Assembly: GCA_964016885.1 (NCBI GenBank)
Contig: OZ024751.1
Coordinates: 40,672,001-40,736,000 of the forward strand
Length of the DNA stretch: 64,000 nucleotides
Reading direction: 5' to 3'
Source of the DNA: Eledone cirrhosa
Taxonomy: Eukaryota
Part shown: positions 16,446-63,493 of the stretch, in pieces
How the letters are laid out: each line of letters begins with the position of its first letter
Numbering within the stretch: position 1 is the first letter of the stretch
The notes under the pieces: model-generated
Told to the model about the DNA's origin: nothing
The model's input: the letters and a program-made list of their open reading frames with translations, nothing else
Database searches by the model: none
Program-made: the position numbers and the translations under genes

Positions 16446-19400
16446 CTAAAAACAAAACAAAAGATACGTATAATCATTGATTTCACAAATAGGTGTAAAT
16501 ATCAATATTCTATATTTATTTGAAGATTATTGAAACCCCTGTCGATACTAAGCCACTTGAAACTGTTAGTTTCAAAAATGCAAAATTATTTATTTTAAAT
16601 TGTTTATATTTATCAAAAACACATTCATCGTAATTTAATGTGAAAAATCTTTCTTAAATTATGTTCTAAACATCAGCTTAATAATTGTTTCTACTTTTGG
16701 CACAAGGCCAGCAATTACCCAGTGCATTACTGGTACTTTATTTTATCGATCCACCAATGCCAATCCACCGCCCTTGCTTAATAATGAAAAAGTTAGTTAT
16801 TTTTAAAATCATTTTCAAATTTCTTGAAAATCACAGATAGCAGAGCACTGACCAGGCAATACTCTATACTCAGGTTTGCTTTTCGACATTCGCATGTGGT
16901 GGCTAAGCCAGACCTGTAGCTTCACATAGTCAAAACAGCGTTTGATTACTCCTTTCTTGTTTTCAAGCGACCGAAGTCCTTTCACTGTAACCAATAAAGC
17001 AATAAAATGAAACTTACTGAAGCATATCGCACCGGCATCTTCCTTGTGGTCACAGTTATGCGTACCAATTCCTCTGTGTTTACATTGCATCAGGTTTGTT
17101 TCGTTACCATTACAGAGTACATTGTCCAGCCAGATTGGACCTGCGCCAGGTTTAAAACTACCTCGACTCAAAACCAAACCATAATTGAATCCAAGTCCCC
17201 GACACACAACTGAAGCTGAATCATTGTCCCACAAGTCATCGCAGACGGTGCCCCACTTATTTGGTCCTTTTACATAGACTTCCACACGTCCCATATGTTC
17301 ATACTCTCCAATCAAACGAAGATGAGAAACACCTGTGTATAAATAACAAAAAAAAAAAAAGGCAAAATTAAATAGGAAATAATAATGATTTCTACTTCAG
17401 ACAGAAGACCAACAATTTTGGGAGAAAGTACCTTCAATATGCCCAATCTCACCAATTTCAACCCGCCCGTCTCCTCAATCTTTCTTCTGATGAAGGACTA
17501 GCGTCCGAAACGTTAAGACCCTCTTCCTGCTATATCAAGCGTTAACCTCATATATCCCTCCCATATACTGTACCGATTGTGTTGTTATTTCTGTTTACCT
17601 TTTACACACACACACACACACACACACACACACACACACACACACACACACACACACACACACACACACACACACACACACACACATATATATATATATA
17701 TACAATATGTTGAAAAGGTAACACACTAGAGAGAGAGTACGCTAGGGAATAGCGAGAGTCTATGGCTCCGTTAATCTATCGTGATATATATATATATATG
17801 GGAAAACCAGAACTACGTATGTTAGAAATACAGGACTGAAAACTAGAATAGAGAAAGAAAAACGAAATAACAGTGTAAATTTTACTTTATATTTCATAAT
17901 ATTTCGGGATTAATAGCCTCTTTTCAAAAAGAAGGATATGGAGTGTGTCAGTGAAGACGAGTGGTGAAGAAACTACCAGGAACCAGCCGGAATGTTGAAC
18001 GCTCAACACCTGCGGCCGGCTTCTGTGTCGTCTTCACCCCATATATAGACGATATACTTAGTCTCACATCATCCTGTGCAGAGGTTGATATAATATAGAT
18101 AATTGTTTCTACTTTTGGCACAAGGCCAGCAATTACCCAGTGCATTACTGGTACTTTATTTTATCGACCCCGTAAGGATGAAAGGCAAAGTCAACCTCGG
18201 CGGGATTTGAACTCAGATCGTAAAGGGACGTAACTATGCTGGAAAGCATGGCGTCCGACCCTCTACCGATACTGCCAATCCACCGCCCTCAGATATAATA
18301 TAGATAATACAGATAGGGAACAATATAAGATTCACCGTAGAACACCCCGATAACAATGGTTCCCTGTCTCTGTTCAACTTCTAACTTAGAATAACAAAAC
18401 AAAACTTACTGATTGATATATTATAACAACTGAGGTAAACATCTGTTGATCTTTGGAATTTATTGCAGTAACGAGTGAGAAAGGAGCTGCCAAAACCAGA
18501 ATTTAGACAATTGAGAAGGTTCACTTCTTTGCCATCACAAAAGACACCGTTTAACCAGTGTCGTAATGGTTGTAGAGGAGTGGCGGGTTTCATGTAACTT
18601 GGCCTGTAGCCATCTATGAAGCCAAGTTGTCGGCAAAACACTCGAGAATCGGAAGCGTTCCAGAAAAGATTACACACAGTCCCCCAAATACCATCATATT
18701 CAATCTCCACACGTCCACTGGAGTTAGTTCCACCATTTAAGCGATAATTGAGACCTGAAAATATTTTGAATTTTTATTTTTAGGAAGTGAAAAAAGTTAT
18801 AAATTATTATAAATAAACCTTCTAAAAAACTTAAATGTACTTTCAACTTCGTTTTCATATATATATATATATATATATATATATATATATATAAAATGAG
18901 AAGAAAGAAGAATACTGCGTAGTTGCACATGGGTTACATATGATAAAAATAGTCCTTCGTCAGTGATTTTCCAACCATCATTGGTATTTCATCGCATTAA
19001 AAATCATATTGCTCGCACCAACCTGAGGTATAACTAAAAAAAGTTATTGGGACCAGTAAATCGCGTAAAGCGAGGGGGACAAGTAAACAACCTAGAAGGA
19101 TAAAAGCAAACCAAAGATGGGAAAAAAACAAGCAACATGGTTGTCCGGTCAGCATAAGCTGGGTGGATTTCATGAGCGAAAGGTACAGACCGTCCGACGT
19201 GAGTGAGATGTAAGCAAGAAGAGATCCACTGTAAGCCAAACGGGAGGAAGTGAGAAGGGGAGAAACAGGGAGTGAGTGAGTGGAAGTGCGAGGAAGCGGT
19301 CAGTCGAGAGAAAGTGTAACTGACAGAGGGGGCGAAAGAAGGTGAGAGAAACAGAGAGAATGGGGAAGCAGTAAGAGAGAAACAGACAAACGCAGCCGAG

Positions 19401-63493: not shown

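Follow-up and report, generated by a model that had tools for sequence, protein, structure and literature searches.

Three-domain periodicity in a predicted giant SRCR receptor of Eledone cirrhosa and in its 26-domain relatives from molluscs and an annelid

The window analysed here is a 64-kb stretch of Eledone cirrhosa DNA (contig OZ024751.1, positions 40,672,001 to 40,736,000), which has a G+C content of 35% and abundant AT microsatellites and carries a gene for a predicted giant SRCR receptor. The gene model was built by six-frame translation and splice-site inspection of the whole window. An original prediction, made from the letters alone, had placed 23 SRCR domains here, and all of them (D1 to D23) were recovered on the minus strand at the same coordinates. 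They are encoded by 25 exons, with D4 and D14 each interrupted by one intron. A last exon (16445-15685), which falls outside the coordinates of that prediction, encodes a stalk, a helix, a tail and the stop codon. The 26 joined exons comprise 8,264 nt and 2,753 codons with zero internal stops, and the 25 introns, whose splice junctions are predicted from sequence, are phase 1 in 24 cases and GT-AG in 24, with one GC-AG. A profile search of 2,334 six-frame segments gave 26 matches, namely the 25 SRCR exons and one decayed copy of the D19 exon. The features are listed below in the order of transcription; the classes (A, B, C and the canonical class X) and family positions are explained in the following paragraphs.

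63176..63493, minus strand, SRCR D1, class A, family position 4; first exon in the window, starts at an acceptor
61511..61849, minus strand, SRCR D2, class B, position 5
59555..59875, minus strand, SRCR D3, class C, position 6
57773..57929, minus strand, SRCR D4, first half, class A, position 7; domain split by a phase-2 intron
54347..54492, minus strand, SRCR D4, second half
51169..51537, minus strand, SRCR D5, class B, position 8; 8 Cys, loop insertion
50655..50966, minus strand, SRCR D6, class C, position 9; followed by a GC donor
49487..49816, minus strand, SRCR D7, class A, position 10
48305..48607, minus strand, SRCR D8, class B, position 11
46549..46860, minus strand, SRCR D9, class C, position 12
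44451..44783, minus strand, SRCR D10, class A, position 13
41549..41872, minus strand, SRCR D11, class B, position 14
38673..39002, minus strand, SRCR D12, class C, position 15
37228..37548, minus strand, SRCR D13, class A, position 16
36626..36730, minus strand, SRCR D14, first part, class B, position 17; domain split by a phase-1 intron
35083..35292, minus strand, SRCR D14, second part; carries the class-B Cys-Cys dipeptide
32404..32733, minus strand, SRCR D15, class C, position 18
30813..31142, minus strand, SRCR D16, class A, position 19
29176..29499, minus strand, SRCR D17, class B, position 20; Cys-Cys dipeptide present
26793..27128, minus strand, SRCR D18, class C, position 21
26171..26713, minus strand, decayed partial copy of the D19 exon, intronic; outside the reading frame, with a 32-bp x 13 minisatellite at its start
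24399..24746, minus strand, SRCR D19, class A, position 22
20562..20882, minus strand, SRCR D20, class B, position 23
19767..20090, minus strand, SRCR D21, class C, position 24
18410..18754, minus strand, SRCR D22, class A, position 25
17018..17332, minus strand, SRCR D23, canonical class X, position 26; carries the acidic cation site (CDD, LD, ED) that is clearly intact in the window
15685..16445, minus strand, last coding exon with Ser/Thr stalk, helix, tail and stop
16101-16033, minus strand, transmembrane helix
15933-15919, minus strand, SNQLY tail motif
15813-15796, minus strand, NGNVYY tail motif
15771-15754, minus strand, FDNPLF tail motif

The D1 exon opens at a splice acceptor; thus, the gene continues upstream of the window and its 5' end is open. 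The sole hydrophobic helix of the chain is the transmembrane helix in the last exon, which follows a stalk with 49% Ser and Thr over 112 residues, and neither a signal peptide nor a second transmembrane segment was found within the 26-exon chain. The window gene is supported as one predicted single-pass type I giant receptor, as originally proposed, with the stalk, helix and tail now located. The introns inside D4 (54493-57772, phase 2) and D14 (35293-36625, phase 1), both on the minus strand, were probably gained once the array was already fixed. The GC donor belongs to the intron after D6 (49817-50654, minus strand); the remaining 24 introns begin with GT.

PF00530 scored above its cut-off in 6/6 exons tested, and 23/23 domains match SRCR profiles. 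Six cysteines are present in 20 of the 23 domains, while D5, D14 and D17 have these six plus an extra pair. Membership of group B was rejected for these three eight-cysteine domains, because the extra pair lies outside the group-B places. By the definitions of groups A and B given in the available part of PMC10855680, the window protein is a group-A member of the SRCR superfamily.

The three domain classes recur along domains 1–22 with a period of three. The period-3 z score is 9.4, and none of 5,000 permutations was as high; a signal also appears at periods 6 and 9, and periods 2, 4, 5, 7 and 8 show no excess (z −0.6 or lower). Identity among these domains is 29–33% within a class versus 25.5–27.7% between classes. 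The nearest neighbour belongs to the same class for 18 of the 22 domains by raw score and for all 22 after double-centring, and leave-one-out class profiles place 20 of the 22 correctly, the misses being D5 and D14. The recurrence of three classes, the core of the original prediction, is therefore borne out. The three clades it expected in a tree of the 23 domains were not obtained: the tree has eight label changes (minimum 3, shuffled mean 11.9) and one starred mixed-class pair, D6-D14, single domains being too short and too diverged to decide the class question. Among control arrays, 17 unrelated SRCR proteins gave period-3 z scores of −2.2 to 3.5, versus 5.8–11.5 for six family members, and the test recovered the period of 5 in bovine WC1 (z 5.3). 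Two of the other arrays have patterns of their own: the Amphimedon array P0074 has period 2 (z 9.0), and the array of the shark Chiloscyllium, P0072, shows a repeated string of about nine domains (period-3 z 3.5).

The class motifs proposed earlier are looser than had been thought. The Val at the exon junction is found in 7/7 class-B window domains, but C-x-x-x-F is found in 5/7 of them and G-Y-I-C in 3/7 class-C domains. Across the family, class B ends in Y-A-S-V-x-C, class A has His and Asp before the last Cys, and class C has G-x-A-Y and A-G-V-x-C-Y. A Cys-Cys dipeptide occurs in 73 of 151 family B domains versus 0 of 303 A and C domains, and the window domains D14 and D17 have one each. 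The joints, counted from the last Cys of one domain to the first Cys of the next, also differ, A-B being the shortest (medians 27–33) and B-C the longest (33–39).

Relatives were sought with D15 as query, then with the scallop protein (best 120 of 148 hits) and then with the annelid match. The D15 query gave 16 proteins, two of which (scallop and clam) are in ABC order according to profiles made from the window alone, and the scallop and annelid queries gave a set of relatives of about 3,000 residues. Family counts refer to 164 fetched SRCR proteins of at least 900 residues: 30 have exactly the architecture X-(B-C-A)x8-X, 40 have at least two B-C-A units, and 94 have fewer. The 30 exact 26-domain proteins come, among the matches listed, from 15 bivalve species, 5 gastropod species and 1 annelid (Dimorphilus), plus one further record. 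As the position profiles were themselves derived from 16 of the 30 and many others are close cluster mates, they do not amount to 30 independent tests; the window-only profiles, which gave the same ABC strings in relatives, provide a test free of this circularity. Every named protein with two or more B-C-A units belongs to a mollusc or to Dimorphilus, and none of the deuterostome, cnidarian, placozoan and sponge arrays among the 164 has two or more.

When the window domains were compared with profiles from which the window had been excluded, 19 of the 23 matched best at position i+3, and the four misses were of an A domain to another A. The window therefore corresponds to positions 4–26, and the first three domains lie outside it. 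The formula originally proposed, (ABC)x7 followed by A and one canonical domain, fits the window, but the complete array of the orthologues reads X-(B-C-A)x8-X. Positions 1 and 26 are both canonical, and the orthologues, which include XP_021368435, XP_061172170 and XP_011423841, have signal peptide-like N-termini. Mean identity between orthologues is 33–49% per position, and the stalk after the last domain measures about 100–310 residues. Since the same 26-domain order is found in molluscs and in an annelid, the array appears to have been frozen before the mollusc-annelid split, as judged from one annelid species. This agrees with the ancient three-domain cassette of the original prediction, whose amplification would predate that split. 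An origin restricted to cephalopods was rejected, bivalves, gastropods and the annelid sharing the 26-domain order. A link between the eight triplets and the units of haemocyanin, which has 7–8 functional units, was also rejected, because oysters, scallops and the annelid keep the same count.

In a tree built from the nine final SRCR domains of 23 proteins, and thus from the ectodomain alone, the window falls in a clade of nine with a Shimodaira–Hasegawa-like approximate likelihood ratio support of 100 and a best identity of 46% (quick search). The same nine proteins share an SNQxY tail, which is kept throughout the window's paralogue group. Transcript-like records include a 3,170-residue family member on a 10,044-nt contig and a 397-residue relative that comprises domain 26, stalk, helix and a tail ending like that of the window (46% over 350 residues). 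The orthologues sought in other molluscs were thus found in bivalves and gastropods. Word-index protein searches, one of them limited to 2,000 residues, found no full-length named cephalopod orthologue; neither did a tail search, which gave six matches, two of them relevant. The octopus and argonaut matches to D15 are ordinary SRCR arrays. In the ESM Atlas, a triplet query returned only mollusc SRCR clusters, and a tail query returned hits under 0.9.

Shorter paralogues of 6, 15 and 16 domains start at position 5 and run to position 10, 19 or 20, and gastropods have several family paralogues per genome. Several family members deserve separate mention. Dimorphilus has two 26-domain genes, P0049 and P0177, with consecutive locus numbers. 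The 5,048-residue Littorina saxatilis model P0188 runs through positions 11–26 and then 1–26 and probably merges two family genes that lie in tandem. The oyster 16-domain paralogue models P0036 and P0149 carry an N-terminal RNA recognition motif, one being named U11/U12 small nuclear ribonucleoprotein 35 kDa, and are probably fused with a neighbouring gene. The Mytilus proteins P0092, P0094 and P0130 are five- or six-domain paralogues (positions 5–10) with a long Ser/Thr/Glu repeat stalk.

The distribution of cation sites sets the two ends of the array apart from its interior. In SALSA, the exposed cation sites 2 and 3 are required for ligand binding and site 1 is buried, according to the accessible text of PMC7043408. 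With the ligands named there, an exposed site was scored as kept when at least three of the four acidic ligands of sites 2 and 3 were present. This was the case for 12/18 domains at position 1 and 14/19 at position 26, but for only 5/454 at positions 2–25, versus 47/74 domains of ordinary arrays. The second acid of site 1 is retained in 306 of the 454 inner domains. Window D5, counted among the five, scores 4/4, which is probably an alignment artefact of its insertion. As read from these alignments, the exposed calcium-ligand cluster is nearly confined to the two end domains of the family array, which are predicted, and likely, to bind calcium.

AlphaFold2 was run on scallop B20-C21-A22 and oyster A19-B20-C21, each with a 28-row alignment. 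The two triplets reached predicted template modelling (pTM) scores of 0.83 and 0.84 and mean predicted local distance difference test values of 87.5 and 89.2, with no ordinary array as control. Had the domains been independent, the pTM should have been far lower, and so all three joints (A-B, B-C and C-A) are predicted to be ordered, with fixed packing. The original prediction took the triplet as a structural unit; the high pTM agrees with this, but the B-C-A and A-B-C registers score equally well, so that no single register is picked out as the unit, and shorter paralogues start at B and end at A or B. The models favour a rigid array that runs on without breaks and has three types of interface, though closed triplets would fit the scores too. 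Foldseek found no superposition of the orthologue models on CD163, CD6, CD5L, PIT54 or LOXL2 beyond one domain: the query template modelling scores were at most 0.39 and multi-domain root-mean-square deviations were at least 8 Å, with 8.0–17.7 Å for CD163 chains, versus about 2 Å for a single domain. Single domains of DMBT1, SCARA5 and MARCO also fitted within about 2 Å. The triplet packing, as predicted, is unlike any solved SRCR array. Prediction of a split-chain complex of A-B plus C gave 0.29 and 0.30 (mark 0.34) and weighs neither way.

Collectively, the window gene is read as positions 4–26 of a 26-domain scavenger receptor for endocytosis, its periodic stalk rigid and its end domains dependent on calcium, a reading in which we place moderate confidence, about evenly poised between right and wrong. 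The 24 inner domains would lock into the stalk, and the three classes would persist because each has two class-specific interfaces; the gain or loss of one domain would then break the register. The tip domain would capture acidic or anionic ligands via calcium. CD163, as described in the available portion of PMC12274614, has a packed SRCR base, uses calcium for multimerisation and binding, and releases its cargo in endosomes. By analogy with the CD163 base, the membrane-proximal domain may join receptor molecules into multimers. Cargo held by the receptor would reach endosomes through the NPxY-like tail, which phosphotyrosine-binding (PTB) adaptors of the Dab2/ARH type would read, and the low calcium and pH of endosomes would free the cargo. 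The site of action may be absorptive or phagocytic cells (digestive gland, kidney, pore cells or haemocytes), which is a guess.

The tail suggests a link to endocytosis. NPxY is found in 20 of 23 homologue tails, and the window has NPLF and NQLY; Phe can replace Tyr in the signal of the LDL receptor. For comparison, ARH and Dab2 bind to two NPXY motifs in the megalin tail, where an NQNY motif serves apical sorting, according to the accessible part of PMC4194038. The tail motifs together with the fixed domain order favour endocytosis over pattern recognition.

Several points weigh against this endocytic reading. The window motif is NPLF rather than NPLY, the tail of Dimorphilus P0049 has NRIY and lacks NPxY, no motif was found in two of the 23 homologue tails, and NPxY motifs are found in adhesion receptors too. 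The structural models are of scallop and oyster orthologues, rest on the 28-row alignments and come without a three-SRCR control or an error map. Mutual-information covariation over 42 proteins gave values for non-adjacent domain pairs no higher than for far-apart controls, adjacent pairs being swamped by their overlapping flanks. Short paralogues that lack both canonical ends cannot act through end domains, and inner domains may bind ligand without calcium.

A bolder form of the endocytic reading is possible but doubtful. It holds the family to be a megalin-like bulk-uptake receptor of molluscs and annelids made entirely of SRCR domains, that is, a rigid superhelix of 26 domains with three-domain periodicity, capped at each end by a calcium-gated head and frozen for >500 million years. 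If true, this would be the first case of an SRCR array whose role is that of a structural solenoid and not of a row of binding sites, and the protein would be a candidate receptor for the intracellular digestion of molluscs and annelids and for their retrieval of proteins.

Two other functions are each clearly less probable. The protein might be a fixed-length spacer or adhesion rod that spans a set gap, such as a cell junction, a microvillar or ciliary link or a filtration slit, its calcium-binding tip holding a partner on the opposite side. Drosophila has in Anakonda a triple-repeat junction protein that contains SRCR domains. The frozen number and order of domains in molluscs and the annelid, the rigid packing predicted by AlphaFold2 and the calcium sites retained only at the ends would all suit such a rod. 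However, the paralogues of 6, 15 and 16 domains and the variable stalk imply that the overall length is not fixed, and retention of NPxY in most tails is not what a rod calls for; we regard it as unlikely. The other candidate, judged equally unlikely, is a microbial pattern-recognition receptor of haemocytes or gut epithelium whose diverged inner domains supply a range of specificities. The part of PMC10855680 available reports high expression of SRCR genes, as a class, in digestive tissues and interprets them as immune receptors, and the several paralogues per gastropod genome and the two adjacent annelid genes fit this idea. Against it, the ligand-binding cluster of DMBT1 is lost in 449/454 inner domains, and positions are conserved with a fixed domain number, in contrast to the fast-changing sponge and sea-urchin SRCR arrays described in the same portion of PMC10855680.

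The period could also be a mere relic of an old three-exon duplication, the domains being independent beads and the classes having no structural meaning. The domain-boundary introns are all phase 1, which makes cassette duplication easy, and both the failure to find covariation and the lack of a control for the structure prediction leave room for this explanation. Yet the register is kept over all eight repeats in three lineages, the classes differ in specific residues (Cys-Cys in B; His and Asp mainly in A) and in joint lengths, and the pTM scores are high, which makes a relic very improbable. That the exons belong to several separate tandem genes is hardly credible: the 5' end of the gene is missing and the exon chain is itself predicted, but the chain lacks any internal stop, signal peptide or second transmembrane segment, the orthologues are single proteins with the same domain order, and one full-length member lies on a single contig.

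Comparison with known receptors places the endocytic receptor proposed here outside the established groups. Like CD163 and WC1, it is a type I protein with SRCR domains only; WC1 has a multi-domain cassette as well, and CD163 chains were the top Foldseek hits. Packed domains, calcium-dependent binding and endocytosis are CD163 features, again from the accessible portion of PMC12274614. However, CD163 and WC1 belong to group B and have 9–11 domains, whereas the window family is group A (6 Cys) with 26. The arm and base packing of CD163 is not matched by the orthologue models, and the window family has an NPxY-type tail. WC1 is built from a five-domain group-B cassette; its period is 5, while the window has period 3 and a period-5 z of −0.6 to −1.0. 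With DMBT1 (SALSA, gp340) the family shares a long SRCR array, and its two end domains keep the SALSA cation site. It differs in that the eight-Cys pattern of group B is not found, the window protein is membrane-anchored where DMBT1 is secreted, and no CUB or ZP domain appears in the Pfam lists of 26-domain members, among the matches listed. Furthermore, the window domains are 25–33% identical to each other with short joints, and the inner cation sites are lost.

Megalin (LRP2) and cubilin-amnionless resemble the family in having a giant modular ectodomain with a fixed plan and a single helix, and the NPxY of most homologue tails and the NQxY of the window's paralogue group recall the motifs reported in the available text of PMC4194038. 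Yet the family lacks LDL-A, YWTD, EGF and CUB domains, the Pfam lists containing only SRCR among the matches listed; by this analogy, megalin is a possible working analogue, not a family member. Sea urchin, sponge and octopus multi-SRCR proteins also have group-A domains in long arrays but are without period 3 and mostly keep the cation site, and some sponge SRCR genes were duplicated in units of one or two domains, according to the accessible part of PMC10855680. The family thus differs from these arrays on both counts. Anakonda (Bark beetle) is likewise large, crosses the membrane once and repeats a multi-domain unit with SRCR in it; that unit mixes SRCR with other folds and is repeated three times, whereas the window family repeats three SRCR classes eight times. 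Class A scavenger receptors (SR-A, MARCO) are type II proteins with a collagen stalk and one C-terminal SRCR domain, whereas the helix and tail of the window protein lie C-terminal to its 23 SRCR domains. The protein fails the defining tests of DMBT1, CD163/WC1, class A scavenger receptors and the LDL receptor family.

Public databases label family members 'DMBT1-like' or 'CD163-like', and the former label is wrong for the 26-domain family. No description of a 23-26-domain or three-domain-periodic SRCR receptor was found in the literature searched, mainly open-access with subscription journals mostly missing, and none of a three-domain-periodic one is given in the available parts of PMC10855680, PMC9334734 and PMC7736800. 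The architecture is real and conserved, and apparently undescribed, in keeping with the original prediction. Multi-SRCR proteins of invertebrates are commonly regarded as immune arrays that evolve fast and are specific to single lineages. This family has instead a fixed domain number and position-specific orthology and has lost the known ligand site in 24/26 domains. Genome papers count 'DMBT1 copies', for example 70 copies in the accessible part of PMC7736800, and some of these 'DMBT1 expansions' mix unrelated genes. The outcome is a defined gene family with a new predicted mode of SRCR packing, and its two predicted calcium sites and two tail motifs would be direct handles on protein or particle uptake in molluscs.

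The introns of the window gene contain further features. The decayed duplicate of the D19 exon, in the intron before D19, matches that exon at 73.6% over 159 nt, and its first 32 bases have been amplified into the 13-copy minisatellite. A 284-residue frame at 42926-43777 (minus strand) has a PHD-finger match, a related fragment lies at 40737-41003 (plus strand), and the C-terminal part of the frame presumably resembles a long interspersed nuclear element (LINE) retrotransposon. Tandem arrays are located at 62533-63105 (191 bp x 3, 100%), 52969-54210 (26 bp x 47.5), 28370-29146 (75 bp x 10.6) and 21074-21349 (54 bp x 5.1), and a short dispersed repeat occurs at 16 other places in the window.

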